A stretch of DNA of 64,000 bases, taken from NCBI GenBank assembly GCA_043820105.1, contig JBDREC010000010.1, positions 62,001-126,000 on the forward strand. Reading direction: 5' to 3'. The notes under the pieces were generated by a model. The model saw only the letters and a list, made by a program, of their open reading frames with translations. It ran no database searches and was not told the DNA's origin. Numbering within the stretch: the first letter of the stretch is position 1; each line of letters starts with the position of its first letter. Positions 10,533 through 62,145 of the stretch are shown here, one piece after another. Source of the stretch: Pseudomonadota bacterium. GTDB taxonomy: Bacteria > Bdellovibrionota_F > JAHFAK01 > JBDREC01. The translations under genes and the position numbers were made by a program.

Positions 10533-10602
10533 GTAAGTAGAAAGTAGTAAGTAGTTTTATCTTCTTACCACTTACCACTTATCACTTACCACTTACCACT
10601 TA
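10533..10602. repeat. CTTACCA heptamer tandem repeat (5.5 units) with an upstream inverted arm GTAAGTAG
   Basis: cttacca cttacca cttatca cttacca cttacca ctta at 10564-10602. Confidence 0.85.
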
Positions 10603-10619
10603 TCTAAATGGAGGGAAAA

Positions 10620-25725: not shown

Positions 25726-25814
25726 TTTTAAACATAAAACATTAACTTTTCAAAACCTTTCTATTTAAAATCATAGATCTTTTTATGTTTTTTAATCCTG
25801 GTACACTCTTTGCA
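25726..25814 (+). promoter_or_regulatory. Sigma54 promoter with a looser upstream box
   Basis: TGGTACACTCTTTGCA (GG-N10-GC) at 25799-25814; TTTTAAACATAAAACA starts 74 bp upstream of the GG. Confidence 0.65.
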
Positions 25815-28332: not shown

Positions 28333-28381
28333 GAATACTAAATACTAAATACCGAATACTGAATACCGAATACCAAATACC
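28333..28381. repeat. (G/A)AATAC(C/T) heptamer tandem repeat (7 units)
   Basis: Ends directly at the AAGGAG RBS of the 28398 gene. Confidence 0.88.
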
Positions 28382-28397
28382 AAGGAGACCCTATACT

Positions 28398-33033: not shown

Positions 33034-36000
33034 ATGAAAAATAGTCTTAGTCAGTATATTGACTTACTTTTGAAAAAAAGAAAAATTTCGGAAAATTCTG
33101 TTAATATTTATAATAAAAAGCTATTGGATTTCGTAGCATTTCTTGGTGAAAATAAAAAACCACAGGAACTAACAAAAGAAATTATTTTGGACTTTATGAA
33201 TAATGTTAAAAAAAAGGGATATTCAGTTCAGACCTATAACCTTTATGTATCCTCCCTAAAACTCTTCCTCAGGCACTTAAATGAAACCCTTGAAATTGAA
33301 GACTTTTCAAAAACAATAAAAAACGAGAAAAAGCAGGATGTCAGTCAAGTATCAAAAAAGGACCTTGAACTTTTTATTGAAAAAACAGAAAGCATTGAAG
33401 ATAATAGAAAAACTTTTTTTCTTCTTTATATCTTACTTGGAATGAGTACAGACAATATTGCCTTATTAAAAAAACAGGACCTAAAGCTTGAAGATAGCAG
33501 AATTGGCATTCGGTATCCTGACAATAAAAAGGCTGGTTATAAATTTTATCCAATATCAGTGGAAAATTTTGGTTTTAGGTTAAAAACTGAACTAGAAGAA
33601 TTAGCTGAATCATCAAAAAAATATCTTTTTGAAACCTCAAAATTAAAACCTCTTACAAAATCAAATTTCAATTATATTTTTAATAAATACAAGCACCTTT
33701 TACCAAAAGAATGTGACACTTTATTAAAACTGAAAAACGACAATATCCTAATAAAATGTGAAATAGACATTGAAGATGGGCTGGAAACTATTATTGAAAA
33801 AAGGTATACCCTTAAAAGACCATTGGGAAAGGGAACTTATAATCAAGTATATCTAGCATATGATGAAGAAAAAAAACAAGATGTTGCCCTTAAGCTTCTT
33901 GACAGTAAAAAAGCAACTCCAAAAACAATCAGTGCCTTTAAAGAAGAATTTAAAATTCTAAAAAAATTAAACCATCCGCAAATTCCCAAGGTATATGAAT
34001 TCGCATATGTAAAAGAAACAAATGCCTTCTACTTTTCAATGGAATATATTGATCTTGATGAATCCTCAAAATATGTAAACAAGCTCTCAACTAGTCAGGC
34101 ATGTATAATCCTGCATAGGGTTCTTGATCTATTAGACTATATTTCAGCAAAGAATATTATTCATTATGATATTAACCCTTCAAATATTATGCTAAAAGAA
34201 AGAGACCATGGCCACACTGATGTTAAACTTATAGATTTTGGTTTAGCAAGCTTAGATGAAAAAGATGTCCATGGCACAAATTATTTTATTGCTCCAGAAA
34301 TAATTCAAACTAAAAAAAGCTGCCCTTCATCTGATTTATATTCTCTTGGGCTTACTATTTATTATTTACTAACATCTAAGTTCCCGTTTTCCACAGCCTC
34401 TTTTGAAGACTATCTAAAAGACATTAAAACTAATACTTTTATAACAATCTCAAGTGCATTGGGAAATTTTGATGCTGATTTAGAAAAAATTATTCTCAAA
34501 ATGATCGCCTATAAAAATAACGATAGATATGAATCTCCAAAAGAGGCTCTTAAAGATATTGATGCATATATAAAAAAATGTTTAGTAGAATCACCAAATG
34601 CTCAAGCTGGTCAAAAACTTGTTATACCTGATTTTTTTGGACGAGAAAAACAATTAGAAATTCTTGAAAACAACTTTAATATCACTTTTCAAGATGATCA
34701 GACCAAACACGAAGTTAACATTAACCTAATATCAGGTGAGCCTTATATCGGAAAAAAGCGATTAATCGATGAAATTGCAAATAAAGCAAATCTTTCTGAA
34801 ATAGAAATAATAAGAATAGAACTTACTAAATCAAACCCACTTAATTCTGTTATTGAATATTTATATGAACATAAAAAGATAAAAAAAGATGAGTTTAAAA
34901 CGATATTGTCAGGTGAGGCAGAATACAAATCATCAATTATCAAAAAAGTTTCTGAAATCTTTTTAAGGCATGTCTCCACAAAGAAAACTCTTCTTATTCT
35001 TGAGAAATTAGAGTTTGCAGATAAAGATATATTAATCTTTATAAGATTCTTTTTAAATGATCTAAAGGCACATAACTCCAAATTACTATTTGTACTTTCA
35101 ATTAATTCTGATTCTTCAAAGCAAGAAAAAATATTGCCAATATTAGAAAAGAAAAGCTCTTCTTTTGCAAACATAAGCATAATAGAATTGCGTCGTTTTT
35201 CCAAAGAAGAAACCGAGAACTATCTCAAAACAACTTTTAATTCAGAAATTGAACCTGAACTTCTTGATTATATTTATAATAGCAGCGGAGGAAACCCAGG
35301 ATATATCGCGAGCTTATTAATAAACCTTAATGAAAATGCTCACCTTTCAATAAAAAATAAAATAACAGGCTTAAATACAAGTATAAGCTTTTCACAAACA
35401 GAGGACCTTGTTAAAATTGGCTTTGAAAGATTAAAGCAACTATCTAAAATTCAAATAATTATTATTTATATTATTGCTAACTATGAGTTTAAAATTACAG
35501 CAGATACTTTATTTATTTTATTATCAAGGCTTGAAAATATTTCAAGAGCAGACTTTTTACAGATAATTGAATCCTTAATAAAAAGAAGCTATATCAAGCT
35601 TAAACAAAATCAAGATACAAGTTCAAATGAAGCTCATTCAAGAACAATCAGCATTATAGCTTTAGCAGACATTACTTTAGAACAAGCAATTGAGCTAGCA
35701 ATAAATAAAAAGGATGCTCAACTTGCAAACCTTATCATAGCAGAAGACCTAGAAGAAACATCAATCCTTGACAACAAGTATAAAGAAGTTATCTCAAATC
35801 ATTATTTAAAAGCATCGAACTATCAAAAGGCTGTTGCTTATTTAGAAGATATTGCGAAAGAATATTTAGAAAAGGGCTTATTAGATAAAGCTATTGAAAA
35901 ATATGAAAGCATTCTACTCTCAATCAAGTCCTTTGATATAAAAATTAAGGAAGAATACAAACTAAAAGCATTTATTAATTTGAGTCGTGCAAACTTCCTC

Positions 36001-38931
36001 TTAGGAAGCTATAAAAAAGCTGAAGATTATAATATAAAAGCCTTACACACAACACAGGATAGAAACACCCAGTTAAGTCTCCTGGAAAATCTTGGGAAAA
36101 TAAAAACCAAGCAAGGCTTTTACACTAAAGGCATTGAGCTTTATGATGAAGCCTTAAAAATCGCTAAAGAAGATAAATTAAAAGATCAAGAATGCAATCT
36201 TTGCTTGTTAAAGATTTCAGCCCTATGGGGTTTAGCCTCTTTTCAAGAAGCTGAAAAATTATTAAAAGAACTATTAAAAATAAAAGATATTAATGCAAAA
36301 TTCAAAGCAACTCTAAATAATTATGCCGGCCTTGTAAATTACTTTAAATCAAACCTAATCAAAGCAAATGAAGATTTTGCTATAGCCTTAAGTTTTGCAG
36401 AAAACCAACAAAATATTTATGCTCAAATTGATATAAATAACAATATCGGGCTTGTAGAGTTTAGGCTAAATAATATTCCAAAAGCTATAGATTCGCACAA
36501 AAAAGCCCTGTCCTTGTGCGAAAAAGTTTCCCATGTTTTCAGCAAGGCACAGCAAAACCTAAACCTGGGGAACTGTTATTACAATGAAGGCAACTTTGGA
36601 AAAGCCCTATCATCATACCAAGAAGCACATGAGGTTTTTAAGGATCTTGACAATCCTCGTGAAACTGAAACAGCCCTTTTTAACCTGGCGCTCATTTACT
36701 CTGAAATTGGAGATAATGTAAAAGCCGAATCTTATGCTAAACAATGTCAGGAATTAGCAAAGAACAGGGAAAACAGCTTAGTGTTTTTAGCGTGTCATGG
36801 AATCTACGGAAACATCAACCTTAATAAGGGGATTTTTCATGAAGCTATTAAAGAATTTGATATCAGCTTAAATTCCTTTAAAGAGCTTTCACTTTTTAAC
36901 TCAATGGCCGAGTTGTTTGTAAGCAAAGCTATTTGTCTTTTTAAACTCAACCTACACAAGGAAATGGCTGAAAACATTGATGAAGCTTTAAAGCTCGAAT
37001 CTAATGATACTAAAATCCTTCTTGAGTCAAATACCTTAAAAGCGAAGCAAGCTATGCTAAACTCTGACTTAAAATCAGCAAAAAAATATTTTGATATAAT
37101 TGACAAGTTAAACACTGAAACAATCGGCTTTCAGGGGAAAATCTCTTTTCATGAAAGCTACGCAAGCTTTCATTTTAAAAACGGTGATTTAAAAAAAGCC
37201 TTAAGCCATATCAAGCAACTAGGGATTCTAATTGCAGATCTAAAGGAAACTCTACCTCTTAGTCAACAACAATCATTTGTTTCACATTATAAAATAAAAG
37301 AAGCCCTGGAAACCATTAATAGAATTAAATTTAAAGAAACAGGTGCAACTGACATAAGTAAAATTGAAAAATTAATTGAAATTACATCTTTTTTAAGCTC
37401 AGAATCAAACCTTGATAAGCTTCTTAATGTTATTATAGATAACGCTATTTTATTTTCAAATGCAAAAAGAGGATTTATCTTACTTAATAAATATTATTTA
37501 GAAAAAGAATTGAAACTAAAGAGCGATGACCTGTTAAAAAACTTTACTGTAATGATAGCTAGAAATATTGAGGGAAGAAACGTTGATAAACTTGCCTTAG
37601 AAGTTAGTGAAACAATATTAAAAGAAACACTAGATGCAGATAAAGTAATTTATATTAAAAACGCCTTTAAAGATTTTGATCAAGCCAAAAGCATACAGAT
37701 GGCTCAGCTAAAAAGCATAATCTCTTTTCCAATTATTGAAAATAAAATAATTATCGGAGCTGTCTATCTTGATGATCCTGGTAAAATATCAGCCTTTGAC
37801 GACATAGATCAAAACCTTATCAAGGCTTTTGCCAAACAAGTTTCAATCGCCATATCAAATTCAAAACACTTAAGTCAACTAAAGCAGAAAAACAAGGAAA
37901 TTGAAACCCTCAACACTGAGCTAGATAAAAGACTAAAAATAACAGAAGAGCTCTATGAAAAATCAGAAGAACTTATAGAAGCAAAAATTAAAACTGAAGA
38001 TAAAAGTTTTGATTACAAAAACATTATCACCCAAAGCCCAAAGATGATGAAAATCTTTGATGTAATAGACAAGATCAAAGATTCTGATGTTCCGGTTCTC
38101 ATAATAGGTGAATCTGGAACAGGAAAAGAACTTATCGCACGTGCTATACACTATAATGGAGCAAGAAGCATAAACCCATTTATGGCTGAAAACTGTGGGG
38201 CCATTTCTGCTACTTTAATTGAAAGTGAACTCTTTGGCTATGTAAAAGGAGCCTTCACTGATGCCAACAAAGATAAAAGAGGAATCTTTGAGCTTGCTAA
38301 CAAGGGAACAGTTTTTCTTGATGAAATAGGTGAAATGCCGCTTGATATGCAAAAGAAACTTTTAAGGGTCTTGCAACAAAAAGCGATTAGAAAAGTTGGA
38401 GGCAATAAATCAATCTCTATAGATTTTAGAATTATTTCTGCTACAAATAAAAATATAAAAGAAATGGTTGAAAAAAGTATTTTTAGAAACGATCTTTATT
38501 TTAGAATAAACACTGTTGAAATACACCTTCCTCCTCTCAGGGAAAGAAAAGAAGATATTCCAATCCTTATTAATTTCTTTTTAAAAAAAATAAACCCTGA
38601 AAGTGAAATAAAAATTGATAAAGCTGTTATTGAAAGTTTCATGGAATATAATTGGCCAGGAAATATTAGAGAACTTGAAAATGAGATCTACAAACTTAGT
38701 GTACTAGCTGAAAACAATAAAATTGATGCTCAAACTTTTAATCAGGGAAAAACTTTTATTTCCAATCAAATTGGAATTCCGAAAAAAACATTAGTAGATA
38801 TAGAAAAAGAATATATTGATAAAATATTAAATGAAGTAGCCTGGAATAAATCACAGGCTTCAAAAATATTAGACATTGATATAAAAACTTTAAATGCTAA
38901 AATTAGCAAATATGAATTGGAGGTAAATTAG
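33034..38931 (+). CDS. Multidomain sigma54 enhancer-binding protein: inactive XerD-like recombinase + Ser/Thr kinase + STAND NTPase + TPR + GAF + sigma54 AAA+ + Fis-type HTH
   Basis: aa1-240 align by eye with XerD; LGKGTYN/VALK/HYDINPSN/DFG/APE; FFGREKQL..GEPYIGKK; TPR helices; GAF (IGAVYLD); GESGTGKE, GAFTDA, LDEIGEM, WPGNIRELEN; WNKSQASKILDI. Confidence 0.9.
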   Translation: MKNSLSQYIDLLLKKRKISENSVNIYNKKLLDFVAFLGENKKPQELTKEIILDFMNNVKKKGYSVQTYNLYVSSLKLFLRHLNETLEIEDFSKTIKNEKKQDVSQVSKKDLELFIEKTESIEDNRKTFFLLYILLGMSTDNIALLKKQDLKLEDSRIGIRYPDNKKAGYKFYPISVENFGFRLKTELEELAESSKKYLFETSKLKPLTKSNFNYIFNKYKHLLPKECDTLLKLKNDNILIKCEIDIEDGLETIIEKRYTLKRPLGKGTYNQVYLAYDEEKKQDVALKLLDSKKATPKTISAFKEEFKILKKLNHPQIPKVYEFAYVKETNAFYFSMEYIDLDESSKYVNKLSTSQACIILHRVLDLLDYISAKNIIHYDINPSNIMLKERDHGHTDVKLIDFGLASLDEKDVHGTNYFIAPEIIQTKKSCPSSDLYSLGLTIYYLLTSKFPFSTASFEDYLKDIKTNTFITISSALGNFDADLEKIILKMIAYKNNDRYESPKEALKDIDAYIKKCLVESPNAQAGQKLVIPDFFGREKQLEILENNFNITFQDDQTKHEVNINLISGEPYIGKKRLIDEIANKANLSEIEIIRIELTKSNPLNSVIEYLYEHKKIKKDEFKTILSGEAEYKSSIIKKVSEIFLRHVSTKKTLLILEKLEFADKDILIFIRFFLNDLKAHNSKLLFVLSINSDSSKQEKILPILEKKSSSFANISIIELRRFSKEETENYLKTTFNSEIEPELLDYIYNSSGGNPGYIASLLINLNENAHLSIKNKITGLNTSISFSQTEDLVKIGFERLKQLSKIQIIIIYIIANYEFKITADTLFILLSRLENISRADFLQIIESLIKRSYIKLKQNQDTSSNEAHSRTISIIALADITLEQAIELAINKKDAQLANLIIAEDLEETSILDNKYKEVISNHYLKASNYQKAVAYLEDIAKEYLEKGLLDKAIEKYESILLSIKSFDIKIKEEYKLKAFINLSRANFLLGSYKKAEDYNIKALHTTQDRNTQLSLLENLGKIKTKQGFYTKGIELYDEALKIAKEDKLKDQECNLCLLKISALWGLASFQEAEKLLKELLKIKDINAKFKATLNNYAGLVNYFKSNLIKANEDFAIALSFAENQQNIYAQIDINNNIGLVEFRLNNIPKAIDSHKKALSLCEKVSHVFSKAQQNLNLGNCYYNEGNFGKALSSYQEAHEVFKDLDNPRETETALFNLALIYSEIGDNVKAESYAKQCQELAKNRENSLVFLACHGIYGNINLNKGIFHEAIKEFDISLNSFKELSLFNSMAELFVSKAICLFKLNLHKEMAENIDEALKLESNDTKILLESNTLKAKQAMLNSDLKSAKKYFDIIDKLNTETIGFQGKISFHESYASFHFKNGDLKKALSHIKQLGILIADLKETLPLSQQQSFVSHYKIKEALETINRIKFKETGATDISKIEKLIEITSFLSSESNLDKLLNVIIDNAILFSNAKRGFILLNKYYLEKELKLKSDDLLKNFTVMIARNIEGRNVDKLALEVSETILKETLDADKVIYIKNAFKDFDQAKSIQMAQLKSIISFPIIENKIIIGAVYLDDPGKISAFDDIDQNLIKAFAKQVSIAISNSKHLSQLKQKNKEIETLNTELDKRLKITEELYEKSEELIEAKIKTEDKSFDYKNIITQSPKMMKIFDVIDKIKDSDVPVLIIGESGTGKELIARAIHYNGARSINPFMAENCGAISATLIESELFGYVKGAFTDANKDKRGIFELANKGTVFLDEIGEMPLDMQKKLLRVLQQKAIRKVGGNKSISIDFRIISATNKNIKEMVEKSIFRNDLYFRINTVEIHLPPLRERKEDIPILINFFLKKINPESEIKIDKAVIESFMEYNWPGNIRELENEIYKLSVLAENNKIDAQTFNQGKTFISNQIGIPKKTLVDIEKEYIDKILNEVAWNKSQASKILDIDIKTLNAKISKYELEVN

Positions 38932-39111: not shown

Positions 39112-40167
39112 ATGAAAAAAACACTAATTAGCGCAATGATTATTTTTAGCTTAATCTTCTTTTCAGCATGTTTGTTAGAAGATGGAACAGATGATACAAG
39201 CAACGACGATGGATCATCAGATTCAGCAGATACAACTGCTTTAACCCTTGATACGCTCGCAGGCATCTTGCTTAACACTACCTTTGATACTTCAACTGAA
39301 TCCTTATTTAAATATGTGACACAGACCACGACCTGTTCAGATACATCAGAAGATCATGCAGGCAATATTTATGGGCTGGATTGTGATGGCAATGGTCTGG
39401 AAGTTGCATATCAAACCCCTACTGCATATACAGTAGCCTTAAAAAGTGTTTATCTAATAACGGATTCAGATGACCTTATTCCGATTCTTGAATATGACCT
39501 ATTATCATCAATCGATGCTGATGGAGTATTTGAATTTACTTCAGAGGAATCATCCCAAACAATTGAAATTCCTTCTGACCTTGCAGCCAGCTACGTTACT
39601 GCCCCTGCAATAAATGGAATAAAACTAGAAATCTATTATTATGAATTTGAAATATTAATGTATAATGAATATGAAACAATCAGGATCTATGTCAGTGATG
39701 ATGATTTTGAAACCGAAGGTTACTTAGGACACCATCAGGGAGATGTAACATATTTTGATGCTGATGGAATTGAACATTGGGCCAATGGTGGACTAAATTG
39801 GTTTTCAAATCCAGATGATACTCTTGAAAGAGGAGAGTTTGCAAACGGAGCAGGGGAAACCGACGAAGAAACAGGACATGAAAGAGGCATGTTTGGTAAT
39901 CTAGCTCAATGGAATGCTGATGATTTTATGCAAGGTGAAAATCAAGACACTTTTTTTGTTGAGATGACTTTTGAAAATCCAAATGGCACAAACATTCAAA
40001 TTAATTTTGATATTACACACACCATGTTCTATGAAGATTACATAAATGATAAATCCTTTGACCCATGCATAGAAAATGACCTTGGTGAATCAAGCGAAGA
40101 AGGTTGCGGAGCAAACTGGTCCATCAATCCACCGGAAATAGAGTCCGTTGTAATAGATGAAATTTAA
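39112..40167 (+). CDS. Highly acidic hypothetical lipoprotein
   Basis: GAGG RBS, lipobox FFSAC, Asp/Glu-rich. Confidence 0.8.
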   Translation: MKKTLISAMIIFSLIFFSACLLEDGTDDTSNDDGSSDSADTTALTLDTLAGILLNTTFDTSTESLFKYVTQTTTCSDTSEDHAGNIYGLDCDGNGLEVAYQTPTAYTVALKSVYLITDSDDLIPILEYDLLSSIDADGVFEFTSEESSQTIEIPSDLAASYVTAPAINGIKLEIYYYEFEILMYNEYETIRIYVSDDDFETEGYLGHHQGDVTYFDADGIEHWANGGLNWFSNPDDTLERGEFANGAGETDEETGHERGMFGNLAQWNADDFMQGENQDTFFVEMTFENPNGTNIQINFDITHTMFYEDYINDKSFDPCIENDLGESSEEGCGANWSINPPEIESVVIDEI

Positions 40168-48920: not shown

Positions 48921-51900
48921 TTAGATATTCCAATCATCTCCGAAAATTCCACCGAAAGGTCCAATTGTTGTGATTGTATCAGCAAAATCAATATAACCAT
49001 CCTGATTTAAATCCTCTAAAAGACCATCTCCATCCAGGTCATCTTGAATATCATTAAGATCTAAATCTAAAGTTCCTTCAAAAGAAAGATCTCCAATGAG
49101 ATCGAATTCTAAATAATTAAGATCCTCATTTTCTAACAAATCATAAATCCCGTTGGCATCGGAATCCTCCAGTGACAAGGTATCAGGAGCCCCTGAAGAA
49201 TCAACTTCAAATTCAATCAATGGATAACTTGCACTTGTATCACTTGTTTCAAAAATATTGTCATCAATCCAAGAATCATCCCCATAGGGGCTTGCATTAT
49301 ATCCATTATCTAAATAAAAATTACTCGGGCTATTGTTTAAGTATAAATTACTAAATGAATATACATTATCAGACATATCTGCATTTGAGTTTGGATAAGT
49401 TGAATCAAAGGCTGGTTTTAAATTATCATAAAAAATATTGTTAGCTAAAATCAGTAAAGAATCAAAAACGCTAAATTTATTAATTAATCCTCCCTCATAA
49501 AGAGTATCATTATTGTAAAATAAATTATTCAAAAATATTATTTCTGTTTCTGTTGAGCTTGTGTTATATAATCTATCAAACCTAATCAATTTGTTATTTC
49601 CACCGCTATTACCAGCAATTATATTATTGGACATAGTAAAATTTTCTACATTTTTGAATTTAAGAACTTCAAACTGACCATGGTTGCCAATAATGAGATT
49701 GTTAGTGAACGTAAGATTTGCATCTGGTCTATCTATTTGAATAGCCCCTGCACTTCTTTCAGATGAATTTCTAGCTATTATATTATTTCTTATGTTTATA
49801 ATACTATTTCCATTGTGGCCTATGGACATGCCTCCACCCAAACTGCTAACACTATTATCCCTAATTATATTATTTTCTATATTAAGTTCAAAATTATTAC
49901 CGCCAATACCAATTCCCCCTTCCAGCATAGCTACATTATTTTGAAGAATATTATTTTTAATAGTAATATTTCCCCAGCTATTATTAGAAAAAAGATATAA
50001 AGATATAGCTCCTCTTCTGCTATCACTATTTTCAATAATGTTATTTTCTATCACAATGTTTGTGTTATCTGCTTTACCGTAAAAATGAATTCCTCCGGCC
50101 ACATCATTTAAAGAGCTGCCATTTCTCATGGTAAAACCCGCAACTTTAAGGCTTTCTCCTCTACCTTGATAATTAACATATAAAGCGGTATCTATTCCAA
50201 GAGTGTCAATAATTGTATAATCTCTACCTTTTTGAGACATTAGCGAAAAGCCATTTGAAGCAACAAGTCTTTCATTATAAGTATAGGGAGCAACAACAAT
50301 ACAGTCATCTTCATTAGAATTATCCATTGCTCCTTGTATGGTAGCAAAAATTTCCAGATTATCAATAGCATCGCTCATTGGATCAACAAGCAAATCATAT
50401 GTAACACTTGAGTCAGAATCATCGCAATCTGACATGTTATCGACATATCCTGTTGGAATACTTGAATTGTCAGAGCAATTAATTACTATTTCATTGTGAT
50501 AATCTCCATATCCGTCATTATCATTATCAATATAAGCAAAAACATTGTTATCAATTTCGCCATCGCAATTATTATCTTTAGTGTCGCAAAGCTCTGGATG
50601 GGTAGGATTAATTTCGTTGTCCGAATCTTCGCAATCACCTCCCAAGAGAACAACATTATCAGGCAAAGGACAAATTCCTTGATATTCTTCATCACCATAA
50701 CCGTCACCGTCATTGTCATAATAGGCAATGGTATCTTCATCTATTTCACCATCACAATCATTATCTTGACCATCACAAACTTCCACACCATAACTATTTA
50801 TTAAATGATTGCTATCATTACAATCATCGCCATTTGAAATATATCCATTTAAAACCTTACAGGAAATAACCAGATTTTCAGCTCCTCCTTCTCCATCTCC
50901 ATCATCATCCCAGTAATTATAGATTTCCGGAAATCCTTCATTTACAACACCATCACAATTATTATCAAAGGAATCACAAATCTCTGGAGCACCTGGATAA
51001 ACACTATCATTCCAGTCTGTACAATCCCAATCATTTTCAACATACCCTTCTGGAACAGTACAAGCATCAATTGAAAAATGATCAGGACGACCAAAACCAT
51101 CTCCATCTGCATCGCGATAATAGGTATTAATAGGCAACCCTTCGTCAACCTGCCCATCACAATTATTGTCAAAAGAGTCACAAATCTCTATAGCATCGGG
51201 ATTAATCTCAACTTCAAAATCATCGCAATCACCTGCAACTAACACATAATTCAAGGGAGCTTCACACATATTAACAAAAACAGTTGAATTACCGAAACCA
51301 TCTCCATCTGTATCGAGGTAGTAAGTGTTAACAATAAAACCTTCATCTACATTTGAATCACAATTATTATCAATTGTGTCACAAGCTTCCAAAGCACTTG
51401 GGTTAATTGAAGCATCTGTATCATTACAGTCTAAATTATTATCAACAAAACCAGCTGGAATATTACAGGCAGATCCACTTAAAGAAGAGCTACCAAAACC
51501 ATCACCGTCTTCGTCAATATAAAAAGTAATATAAGCGCCCTCATCAATTTCATCATTACAATTATTATCAATATTATCACAAAGCTCCAGGTTACCTGGA
51601 TATCGGTTTGGATCATTATCATCGCAGTCACCCTCTTCAGGGCTAACACCATCTAAATCATCATCAATTTTAATAATTAATTCATCTTCTGTTGTGGTGC
51701 TTGCTTCTTCCACACCAGCAACATCTTCTGGAGGATTGTTATTTTGAATAGAATTAGTAGGATTTGGAGTTGGAAAGGAATCTGCAGTTTCATGGGATTC
51801 AATTTCCCCATCTAATATTGGGGCTTCTTGATTACTTTCCTGCTCAATTGAAATCTCGTCAATTGCTTCATCACTTGCCTTGCTTTCGCTTCCACAAGAA

Positions 51901-51965
51901 AGCAGAAGATATTGTGAAAGAATAAATATAAAAAATATAACAATTCTTTTTTTCAAGTTTTTCAT
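48921..51965 (-). CDS. Lipoprotein with MopE-like (putative metal-binding) Cys/Asp repeats and a right-handed beta-helix
   Basis: GGAGG RBS before MKNLKK; lipobox LLSC; about seven DCDD..P.A.E.CD..DNNCDG.VDEG units with YxDxDGDGFG; Asn/Ile-rich beta-helix (IENNII, NNIIA). Confidence 0.85.
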   Translation of the reverse strand: MKNLKKRIVIFFIFILSQYLLLSCGSESKASDEAIDEISIEQESNQEAPILDGEIESHETADSFPTPNPTNSIQNNNPPEDVAGVEEASTTTEDELIIKIDDDLDGVSPEEGDCDDNDPNRYPGNLELCDNIDNNCNDEIDEGAYITFYIDEDGDGFGSSSLSGSACNIPAGFVDNNLDCNDTDASINPSALEACDTIDNNCDSNVDEGFIVNTYYLDTDGDGFGNSTVFVNMCEAPLNYVLVAGDCDDFEVEINPDAIEICDSFDNNCDGQVDEGLPINTYYRDADGDGFGRPDHFSIDACTVPEGYVENDWDCTDWNDSVYPGAPEICDSFDNNCDGVVNEGFPEIYNYWDDDGDGEGGAENLVISCKVLNGYISNGDDCNDSNHLINSYGVEVCDGQDNDCDGEIDEDTIAYYDNDGDGYGDEEYQGICPLPDNVVLLGGDCEDSDNEINPTHPELCDTKDNNCDGEIDNNVFAYIDNDNDGYGDYHNEIVINCSDNSSIPTGYVDNMSDCDDSDSSVTYDLLVDPMSDAIDNLEIFATIQGAMDNSNEDDCIVVAPYTYNERLVASNGFSLMSQKGRDYTIIDTLGIDTALYVNYQGRGESLKVAGFTMRNGSSLNDVAGGIHFYGKADNTNIVIENNIIENSDSRRGAISLYLFSNNSWGNITIKNNILQNNVAMLEGGIGIGGNNFELNIENNIIRDNSVSSLGGGMSIGHNGNSIINIRNNIIARNSSERSAGAIQIDRPDANLTFTNNLIIGNHGQFEVLKFKNVENFTMSNNIIAGNSGGNNKLIRFDRLYNTSSTETEIIFLNNLFYNNDTLYEGGLINKFSVFDSLLILANNIFYDNLKPAFDSTYPNSNADMSDNVYSFSNLYLNNSPSNFYLDNGYNASPYGDDSWIDDNIFETSDTSASYPLIEFEVDSSGAPDTLSLEDSDANGIYDLLENEDLNYLEFDLIGDLSFEGTLDLDLNDIQDDLDGDGLLEDLNQDGYIDFADTITTIGPFGGIFGDDWNI

Positions 51966-52009
51966 TTCTCCTCCAGAAAAATATTTTGTGTTATTCATAA
52001 GCATATTAA

Positions 52010-52099
52010 TGCAAGCAGCATACCAGAACTCACTTGGCAAGATAAGACTATAATATCAATACAATACAATGAGAAGGAGTGTTTCTCTTTTATTCAAAA
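52010..52099 (-). promoter_or_regulatory. Sigma54 promoter with conserved upstream box
   Basis: TTTTGAATAAAAGA 52099-52086; TGGTATGCTGCTTGCA 52025-52010. Confidence 0.75.
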
Positions 52100-52286: not shown

Positions 52287-52359
52287 CATAGAAAATAATA
52301 TAGAAATTGGATTTTTTGAGACATAAAAATCTCAATAATTAAGGAAATTAGAAAAAAAC

Positions 52360-52395
52360 AAAAAAAAAGCCTAAGTCGAAATTTTCGACCCAGGC
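52360..52395 (-). terminator. Rho-independent terminator
   Basis: GCCUGGGUCGAA-AAU-UUCGACUUAGGC 12-bp stem (2 G-U pairs, complete only on the minus strand) followed by a U-run. Confidence 0.85.
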
Positions 52396-52428
52396 AGTTT
52401 GCTTTGGGGGACATATTATGAAACTATT
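52360..52428 (-). ncRNA. Candidate sigma54-dependent small RNA (~70 nt)
   Basis: Lies between the sigma54-like promoter at 52454-52439 and an intrinsic terminator; no RBS-led ORF; contains UUUCAUAAUAUGUCCCCC. Confidence 0.55.
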
Positions 52429-52438
52429 AAGATACTAT

Positions 52439-52527
52439 TTCAACTTGTGTGCCATTTTAGCAGCATATGTGTTTTTCTTTATTTTCAACACCTTATATGG
52501 TCCGCTTGAAAATTCTTTTTTTCAAAA
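52439..52527 (-). promoter_or_regulatory. Sigma54-like promoter with conserved upstream box
   Basis: TTTTGAAAAAAAGA 52527-52514; IHF-like TTTCAACACCTTA 52483-52495; TGGCACACAAGTTGAA 52454-52439. Confidence 0.7.
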
Positions 52528-52770
52528 AGGGGACTTTAGTGAATTTTGTAAAGTTAATGGATCATATCTTTTAGACAACACTTGCCTCAAGGTAGAAAAT
52601 CATATTTTAAGTCTAATCTTTGAGTAAGGATATAATATTTTTAGGATTAATAACTTATACAGAAGCATTCAAATTCTATGGCTTGTTTATTATTTTACAA
52701 CATCGGGAGATGCTTGGGACGGTGAACCCCCAACCATAGATTCAAGAACATCATAAAATTGTCTAGTCAA

Positions 52771-53156: not shown

Positions 53157-53228
<72 letters not shown>

Positions 53229-62081: not shown

Positions 62082-62085
62082 TTCT

Positions 62086-62145
62086 CCTTGTTCTCTTGTT
62101 CCCTTGTTCTCGTGTTCCCTTGTTCCCTTGCGCTCTTGTTCCCTT
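62086..62145. repeat. (C/T)CTTGTTC octamer tandem repeat (7 units)
   Basis: Fills the gap between the fcl stop and the AGGAG RBS of the DUF362 gene. Confidence 0.85.

Follow-up and report, generated by a model that had tools for sequence, protein, structure and literature searches.

Sigma-54-dependent small RNAs (sRNAs) are known from a handful of model bacteria, with the Qrr RNAs as the textbook case of siblings that integrate signals. Qrr1-5 of Vibrio depend on sigma-54 and LuxO and are encoded by near-identical copies, each with its own promoter, a conserved, single-stranded seed for pairing at or close to ribosome-binding sites (RBSs) and its own terminator, and qrr1 adjoins luxO. GlmY is a protein decoy with overlapping sigma-70 and sigma-54 promoters; the Pxr RNA, of ~110 nucleotides (nt), has three hairpins. 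Unpaired C-runs that pair with G-rich RBSs are found in RsaE/RoxS, in the hairpins of RNAIII and in RepG. Here we analyze positions 52360-52454, read on the minus strand, of a 64,000-nt stretch of contig JBDREC010000010.1 (hereafter the window), and we propose that this element probably belongs to a multi-copy gene family encoding trans-acting sRNAs of ~62-73 nt with sigma-54-type promoters.

Two further groups of RNAs are relevant for comparison. In the accessible text of the source, the cuckoo RNAs of Alphaproteobacteria (the RSs0680/CcsR and SmelC397/NfeR1 group) are multi-copy RNAs with two to four adjacent hairpins, each of which has a CCUCCUCCC loop directed against the Shine-Dalgarno (SD) sequence (PMC4615179). 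The accessible part of a study of the Desulfovibrio vulgaris sigma-54 regulome, which is rich in activators, describes four sigma-54-controlled non-coding RNAs (PMC4641369).

Results

A predicted sRNA gene with its own promoter and terminator

A sequence-only reading of this locus had proposed a TGGCAC-N5-TTGA promoter on the minus strand, followed by a transcript of about 70 nt that lacks an RBS-led open reading frame (ORF) and ends in a 12-bp terminator with a U-run. All of these elements are present (Table 1; coordinates are those of the window): the predicted RNA is 69 nt long, its start is placed 12 nt downstream of the -12 element, its 12-pair stem is followed by nine Ts, and there is no SD-led ORF on the minus strand of the element. 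An AUG within the window seed opens a 56-amino-acid minus-strand frame that crosses the terminator, and in the copies with the GCUCCCCUAA seed the minus-strand seed AUG opens three codons only (AUG CUC CCC UAA). The minimum free energy (MFE) of the predicted RNA is -18 kcal/mol (z = -3.09; one of 200 shuffles was equally stable), and in the MFE structure only the terminator folds while the 5′ 33 nt, including the seed, are unpaired. The anti-SD/anti-AUG segment is exposed in this fold, as had been proposed, and is conserved in six copies of the same seed type. The AGUUU/AAACU stem that had been suggested to close a loop around it was absent from both the MFE and centroid structures, and of those six copies three could form it, namely the window copy, C98 and, if a G-U pair is allowed, C1. 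We found that TGGCAC-N5-TTGM occurs once in the window against 0.18 matches expected, with at least one match in 16 of 100 shuffles; the promoter pattern alone is therefore not significant, and its reality rests on the paralogues and relatives described below.

Table 1. Positions of the predicted gene, its family members and other features considered. Ranges without a prefix are window positions; C-prefixed positions are in the genome that contains the window.
Feature	Position	Strand	Remarks
Sigma-54-type promoter TGGCAC-ACAAG-TTGAA (TGGCACACAAGTTGAA)	52454-52439	minus	-24 canonical; -12 is GA instead of GC
Predicted ~69-nt RNA of the window copy (type A): AAUAGUUUCAUAAUAUGUCCCCCAAAGCAAACU, ending in terminator and U-run	52428-52360	minus	sequence, fold, nine further copies of equal layout
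Seed UUUCAUAAUAUGUCCCCCAAAG, mirror of a start region (SD GGGGGA, spacer, AUG AAA)	52423-52402	minus	kept in six type-A copies
Predicted intrinsic terminator GCCUGGGUCGAA-AAU-UUCGACUUAGGC, 12 pairs (two G-U)	stem 52395-52369; U9 52368-52360	minus	pattern scan and fold
Type-A copies, seed UUUCAUAAUAUG(C)UCCCC(U)AA, n = 6	C10:114454 (window), C1:16575, C98:6182, C105:229, C105:542, C90:46304		
Type-B copies, seed CUUUUUCAUAUUCCUCCUCCUUGAAAAAG / AGCUUUUUCAUAUUCCUCCUCCUUGAAAAAG, n = 4	C24:8181, C80:20888, C10:21458, C90:207221		
Sigma-70-like match TTGAAA-17-CATAAT (10/12)	52443-52415	minus	overlaps promoter and seed; pattern scan
A/T-rich box variant TTTGAAAAAAAG	52526-52515	minus	four mismatches to TTTAACATAAAA; 71-72 nt upstream of TGGCAC
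Inverted repeat TTGAAAA-N6-TTTTCAA enclosing the box variant	52525-52506	minus	common to C1 and C90 copies
Opposite-strand 69-codon frame (MKLLRYYFNLC...)	52418-52627	plus	judged not a gene
Separate sigma-54-type promoter TGGTATGCTGCTTGCA of downstream MopE-repeat lipoprotein gene (start 51965)	52025-52010	minus	strict promoter pattern
SD-adjacent tandem repeats	10585-10619; 28363-28397; 62082-62116	plus; plus; minus	also on C75, C90, C68 and C1

The element belongs to a family of at least ten copies

The genome that contains the window (G000; 3.8 Mb in 113 contigs, 93% complete) was searched with positions 52300-52700 as the query, then with an nhmmer profile of the common block, and then with a sequence-only covariance model (R1). 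The query found three more copies, the profile four further copies, and the covariance model a tenth copy together with one copy in each of two relatives. G000 accordingly has at least ten paralogues, nine with TGGCAC and one with a mutated -24 element. The comparison with related genomes that had been suggested as a check on this locus added the two relatives that carry a copy. The copies fall into two seed types, A and B (Table 1). Across the copies the predicted transcripts are 62-73 nt long, and all combine a seed that is left unpaired with a strong terminator; a 49-nt call for the C90 type-A copy stops early, at a loop U-run, and is not its true length. The type-B AGCUUUUUCAUAUUCCUCCUCCUUGAAAAAG is predicted to form a 15-nt loop closed by a 7-bp stem, with CCUCCUCC displayed in the hairpin loop.

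The promoter and the next ~40 nt are common to the first four copies and are followed by four different hairpins, each with a T-run, and in all ten copies a hairpin of unrelated sequence and a T-run stand directly after the seed. In an alignment of nine copies, TGGCAC never changes, nor does the TG of the -12 element, and the 5-6 spacer bases vary between copies (ACAAG, CAAGT, CACAT, AGAGT, CTTTC, ACCTT and GCCTC). Judged from the alignment, invariant promoter positions with a free spacer are the pattern of a sigma-54 promoter and not a codon pattern. The -12 element reads TGC in seven of the nine aligned copies and TGA in the window and C1 copies only. A scan for the design pattern (promoter, TTYCAT, C-run) returned nine family members and two other sites that lack a terminator, and the genes flanking the ten copies have no common theme and are mutually unrelated. 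With its own promoter, its own terminator, no conserved ORF on either strand and a conserved seed that is predicted to be accessible, the element appears to be a stand-alone unit.

Several observations touch on the extent of the family. Two type-A genes sit in tandem ~310 nt apart at a contig end (C105:1-560), and the family may break the assembly; the true copy number may lie above ten. The type-B copy at C90:207221-207271 (+), with TGCCAA instead of TGGCAC at -24, is probably a decayed member, as is a site at C4:30915-30941 (+) with the type-A-like seed AUUCAUAAUAUGCCCCCC and no TGGCAC within the 45 nt upstream. More candidate sRNAs, each comprising a sigma-54-type promoter, a short ORF-less stretch and a terminator, lie at C12:77984(-), C68:26559(+), C49:25835(-), C102:16523(-), C39:16486(-) and C11:6545(-); the C12 and C68 candidates have GUAUUUUUAGCCAUAAnCAAAG in common, and the C49 candidate carries another anti-start-region seed, GUUUCAUGUUCCCAUAG.

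A type-B gene is kept in two relatives

The comparison set of 41 genomes includes two species representatives in the same order and one more in the same class. The two from the same order (G001 and G002), which belong to another family, each carry one type-B gene with a TGGTAT-N5-TTGCA promoter, the identical hairpin and a terminator (AGCCGGCUG...CAGCCGGCU), and the stretch between the -12 element and the seed differs from that of the G000 copies. Thirty consecutive columns (AGCUUUUUCAUAUUCCUCCUCCUUGAAAAA) are invariant across seven type-B sequences, comprising four from G000, two from the relatives and one from a metagenome contig that adds no independent evidence because it is nearly identical to G002. 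The proteins encoded beside the relatives' copies are 34-50% identical to proteins of G000, with the matches on other contigs, indicating that the loci are not syntenic and making the 30 invariant nt stand out. In the type-B terminator, three of eight stem pairs are changed on both sides (A-T/G-C, T-A/C-G and G-C/A-T) among the six in-register sequences; the seventh, C24, is one column out of register and has its own 10-bp stem.

The genome from the same class (G003) gave no convincing match (best E = 0.21). In a first search of the 41 genomes, G001 matched query positions 60-87 (28 nt) and G012 matched positions 336-374 (39 nt), both stretches lying outside the promoter-to-seed block. In public genome contigs, the promoter-plus-leader pattern was found at no locus and the exact type-B hairpin only in the records of the two relatives, and in public metagenome contigs the hairpin occurred in two contigs nearly identical to G002; these exact-pattern scans of public collections added no further lineages.

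Comparison with described sRNAs

An Rfam scan, which had likewise been suggested for the locus, returned at gathering score a tRNA-Glu (53157-53228) as the only match in the window and no family at the element. When the window copy and a type-B copy were scanned by E-value, all matches were at chance level, the best at the locus being NsiR1 with 20.1 versus 39 bits. We found no description of this sRNA family in the literature searched, which did not cover subscription papers and supplements.

The family resembles the Qrr RNAs in having several copies, a sigma-54-type promoter and an intrinsic terminator for each, a seed predicted to be single-stranded and a size below ~110 nt. In addition, a response-regulator-type activator is encoded two genes upstream of the type-B copy C80, which recalls the arrangement of qrr1 and luxO. 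Unlike Qrr, however, it comes from an unrelated lineage, has no sequence or covariance-model similarity to the Vibrio RNAs, and comprises ten copies in two seed classes, where Qrr has up to five in one. The RNAs described here are also shorter (62-73 nt) and are associated with at least two upstream architectures in a genome where Hfq is not clearly present, and their seed mirrors a whole start region (SD, spacer and AUG-AAA), whereas the Qrr seed is gene-specific.

As far as the accessible text describes the cuckoo RNAs, the likeness lies in the type-B CCUCCUCC carried in a loop, in the multiple copies, in stems that are highly variable elsewhere and in the proposed occlusion of the RBS. The differences are that the RNAs of our family have one module, extended by an anti-AUG-AAA part and preceded by a sigma-54-type promoter, and that in the window copy UCCCCC sits in an unpaired stretch, the only hairpin being the terminator, with no match to an Rfam model. 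By the family definition in that text, neither the window copy, with no motif hairpins, nor type B, with one hairpin, is a cuckoo RNA. The D. vulgaris RNAs, GlmY/GlmZ (Yersinia and relatives) and Pxr (Myxococcus) have the same promoter class as our family, and none of them, in the accessible parts of the sources, is a ten-copy family with an anti-start-region seed or gave a model match.

The overlap of the two GlmY promoters is paralleled by the sigma-70-like and sigma-54-type sequences that overlap at the window copy. RsaE/RoxS, RNAIII and RepG likewise direct a C-run seed at the SD, but they are single-copy, are not sigma-54-driven and have no contiguous anti-AUG-AAA part. Taken at the level of sequence and architecture, these comparisons support a new, lineage-restricted family within a known kind, that of sigma-54-dependent sibling sRNAs with anti-SD seeds.

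Sigma-54 background and an upstream box

The organism encodes both RpoN and enhancer-binding activators, with one rpoN gene (Sigma54_DBD, 211 bits) and 33 Sigma54_activat matches, all at or over the cut-off, and a strict sigma-54-type promoter pattern has 291 matches in the genome. Among the activators is an unusually large paralogous set of ~9 giant proteins of 1950-1990 residues with the Sigma54_activat AAA+ domain near the C-terminus, one of which is encoded in the window at 33034-38931 (+), with its AAA+ domain at 38023-38526.

It had been proposed that a box and an IHF-like site accompany the promoter. What was presumably meant as the box is a real genome-wide element: the exact 12-mer TTTAACATAAAA occurs 52 times, 28 of these 69-72 nt upstream of a TGGCAC-type promoter, and with up to two mismatches it is found at 45 of 625 loose promoter-like sites compared with 2 of 625 at a control distance. 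Two promoters in the window, at 25799(+) and 40312(+), have it upstream. Three type-A genes (C98, C105a and C105b) carry the exact box at the fixed distance, in common with ~45 other sigma-54 promoters; the window, C1 and C90 type-A copies have TTT(G/T)AAAAAAAG(A)-type variants at the equal place, and the type-B genes have no such box. The window sequence is thus only a variant of this box (Table 1), and it is possible, from its sequence and position, that it is a site for an activator or an architectural protein. The IHF-like match TTTCAACACCTTA (52483-52495, one mismatch) is of a kind that occurs at chance level in the window (225 vs 231 expected). Short tandem repeats (CTTACCA, ATACCRA, GAACAAG, CTTACGA and CTTACAG) were also seen directly upstream of the SD in many 5′ leaders, often those of sigma-54-driven genes.

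Because the -12 element of the window and C1 copies is weakened and their box is degenerate, they may be members that are weaker, under different control or in decay. A stronger form of this view, which takes the family itself as real, is that these two copies have lost sigma-54 dependence or are decaying: with C replaced by A at -12, TTGCAA becomes TTGAAA, which makes a better -35 box and together with CATAAT 17 nt downstream would give an RNA of ~45 nt from ~52408 that keeps the C-run and loses the anti-AUG part. The combination scores 10/12, TGA at -12 is confined to these two of the nine aligned copies, and both copies have only a degenerate box and a diverged seed (GUCCCCC / CGCCCCCC), the window seed GUCCCCCAAAG departing from the main type-A form. 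On the other hand, TGGCAC is perfect and at the exact spacing in both copies, sigma-70-like matches in this AT-rich region are not above chance (11 vs 8.8 expected), and seed conservation extends upstream of the putative sigma-70 start. We consider this alternative, loss of sigma-54 dependence or decay, unlikely.

The opposite-strand frame and the downstream genes

The plus-strand frame opposite the element exists because the seed mirrors an SD and an AUG. Its conservation had been named as a finding that would overturn the sRNA, and conservation came out against the frame: its length in the ten copies is 69, 37, 18, 71, 3, 3, 19, 77, 32 and 21 codons, similarity ends after ~13 codons, which are the promoter read backwards, and the two copies with three codons (C105:542 and C90:46304) retain promoter, seed and terminator. 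In the relatives the opposite frame (MKKLISIELQ...) diverges right after MKKL, so that promoter, seed and terminator are kept and the peptide is not. The 69-codon window frame has no homologue in a collection of 5.8 billion proteins, within the length range searched, and no Pfam family. Every comparison that we ran thus favors a minus-strand non-coding RNA over an antisense ORF.

The same data bear on a type I toxin-antitoxin-like pair, in which the plus frame, with its strong SD (GGGGGA-N6-AUG), would encode a small hydrophobic toxin and the minus-strand RNA would be its cis-antisense antitoxin, masking SD and start codon, as in SymR/SymE. Such a pair would fit the full complementarity between the RNA and the SD and start on the opposite strand, a multi-copy element and the hydrophobic stretch AILAAYVFFFIF in the window frame. 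It is very improbable, however, given a frame of 3-77 codons that is conserved no further than the promoter mirror, the two intact three-codon copies, the divergence after MKKL in the relatives, the lack of a homologue or Pfam family for the window frame, and the absence of a conserved plus-strand promoter in the ten copies, each of which has its own terminator in the place upstream of the SD.

The element could also be read as a cis-acting leader or attenuator, with the sigma-54 promoter serving the downstream gene and the hairpin acting as a conditional terminator. A same-strand gene does come next in the window, C1 and C10b copies, but at least three copies (C98, C90 and C80) precede convergent genes and so cannot be leaders, C105b precedes another copy, and the downstream genes are mutually unrelated. 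In the window, the downstream MopE gene has its own promoter ~340 nt beyond the terminator, and the small RNA is consequently not its leader. We regard an attenuator as highly unlikely. The MopE lipoprotein itself (48921-52040, minus strand) has ~1014 residues and contains at least six cysteine-rich metal-binding repeats of the MopE type, and its C-terminal half is beta-helix-like.

A dispersed repeat with no RNA function of its own, for example an orphan promoter cassette or what is left of a mobile element, would account for the multiple copies and for the presence of some at contig ends (C105:1-240), as is usual for repeats. We found no terminal repeats and no common flanks past the promoter-to-seed block, and the terminators are different yet intact in each copy. 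Conservation moreover tracks functional positions (GG/TGC kept, spacer free), and the relatives, with neighbor proteins at 34-50% identity, keep the seed hairpin unchanged over 30 nt, making a functionless repeat a very doubtful explanation. Finally, that the plus-strand frame is an ordinary small protein gene with GGGGGA as its RBS, and that the minus-strand motifs are chance, is extremely unlikely: the frame is open for 69 codons with a good SD and an N-terminal hydrophobic segment, and the promoter pattern alone could be chance, yet the points against the toxin apply here as well, and it is the minus-strand layout, not the frame, that recurs ten times and in two other genomes.

Predicted targets

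Type-A seeds mirror GGGGAG/GGGGGA-N6-AUGAAAC and type-B seeds mirror GGAGGAGG-AAU-AUGAAAAAG. Targets were sought among 2931 heuristic start regions, taken from ORFs of at least 100 codons with starts picked by an SD rule; a contiguous 11-mer complement scan was swamped by AT-rich AUGAAA matches, and duplex energies were used instead. At or below -18 kcal/mol we found 99 start regions for A1, 91 for A2 (the window type) and 262 for B, compared with 2-20, 2-28 and 10-99, respectively, in ten shuffles of each. The top 100 for A1, A2 and B contained 28, 24 and 30 genes behind sigma-54-type promoters, respectively, against a background of 5.8%, and 65, 59 and 57 genes with signal- or transmembrane (TM)-like N-termini against a background of 24.5%, enrichments that are suggestive only, because the start sites were chosen with an SD rule and mirrors of start regions score well by construction. 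With 13 control oligos (reversed seeds keeping the C-run, shuffles and a plain anti-SD), the top 100 contained 1-12 genes behind sigma-54-type promoters and 17-41 with signal/TM-like N-termini. The 58 sigma-54-linked candidates group by sequence into 38 clusters of up to 16 members, and the A and B target sets barely overlap (3 and 2 in common). Type-B pairing is enriched both in genes with box promoters (36%) and in other sigma-54 genes (33%) compared with 7%.

Individual candidates include the lipoprotein start at C75:13891, which pairs with the window-type seed at -29.6 kcal/mol, and the pilin-like genes C104:3023 and C4:36102, which are in the top target set. The sigma-54-driven lipoprotein gene at C1:28160 has a perfect 16-nt complement of the type-A seed, UUUAGGGGAGCAUAUU, in its 5′ untranslated region. 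The leader of this 530-residue lipoprotein, at C1:28100-28230 (+), contains the hairpin GGUUUUAGG...CCUAAAACC, whose 5′ arm and loop carry the 16-nt complement and which may serve either as a target site or as an RNA sponge. At C1:21335, the gene of a sigma-54-driven 1536-amino-acid protein has UAGGGGAGCAU as its SD, and the MopE lipoprotein start region CUGGAGGAGAAAUGAAAAAC (start 51965) ranks 68 of 2931 for the type-B seed. The start region at 39112, which the sequence-only reading had offered as a partner of the window RNA, ranks only 986 of 2931 at -10.0 kcal/mol. The wider suggestion that the RNA is a post-transcriptional arm of the regulon receives indirect support from the 24-30 sigma-54-linked starts in the top-100 sets, and its one named target does not.

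Discussion

Our analysis suggests the following course of events. An enhancer-binding activator would switch on RpoN-RNA polymerase at TGGCAC-N5-TTGMA, and the transcript would begin ~12 nt past the -12 element and stop at the intrinsic terminator of the gene. The 5′ segment left unpaired, UUUCAUAAUAUGUCCCCC, mirrors an SD (GGGGGA), a spacer and AUG-AAA, and the seed would pair in trans with the start regions of mRNAs that have a G-run SD and AUG-AAA(C), possibly assisted by a chaperone. Such pairing is expected to block ribosome loading and would probably lower mRNA stability. Type B, through CCUCCUCC in the loop of its 7-bp hairpin, would act likewise on GGAGGAGG-type sites.

Several observations weigh against this proposal. 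The type-B gene is found in only two independent relatives, its hairpin is without covariation support because it never varies, and type A was not found outside G000 in the genomes and collections searched. At the window copy the -12 element is GA rather than the near-universal GC, the upstream box has four mismatches, and the sigma-70-like TTGAAA-17-CATAAT, if used, would give a shorter RNA that starts inside the seed and lacks the anti-AUG part. Of the possible RNA chaperones, Hfq falls below the Pfam cut-off (25.6 vs 27 bits) and CsrA was not found in the 93%-complete genome. The 36 genes with box promoters are not enriched for type-A pairing (3% vs 3%), whereas the 135 other sigma-54 genes are (20%), and the target enrichments are to be read with the caution given above. 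It is also important to note that no RNA sequencing runs matching the region are listed, so that the transcript, its ends and its strand are predicted; the listed runs are three of groundwater DNA with small shares, which over the locus gave one identical 184-nt contig across 52370-52553, two unlike fragments and no variants.

Secreted proteins, lipoproteins and pilin-like proteins make up most of the predicted targets, and many are sigma-54-driven, so that the family would form a post-transcriptional layer on and between sigma-54 regulons. A far-reaching extension, which we offer as a speculation and consider rather unlikely, is a regulon-wide anti-start-region RNA layer of at least ten siblings, each switched on by a sigma-54 activator and each mirroring an RBS plus AUG-AAA, in which two flavors would sort the mRNAs of secreted proteins by SD type (G-run vs GGAGGAGG). 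In this reading, since the best predicted targets of the three box-bearing type-A genes are sigma-54 genes without the box, the RNAs would let one sigma-54 regulon silence the translation of others in a hierarchy written in SD flavor.

The family adds to the sigma-54-dependent sRNAs an unrelated group that is absent from Rfam and comes from a deep-branching, uncultured groundwater lineage, with twice the copy number of Qrr, two seed classes and a seed that mirrors a whole start region. The ten loci, the 30-nt type-B hairpin and the fixed-distance box provide probes for metatranscriptomes and heterologous reporters. If the proposal is true, enhancer-dependent transcription and RNA-level translational control would jointly govern a large part of the organism's secreted and surface proteome, and nature would have provided, in compact form, a set of regulators able to sort mRNAs by SD flavor.

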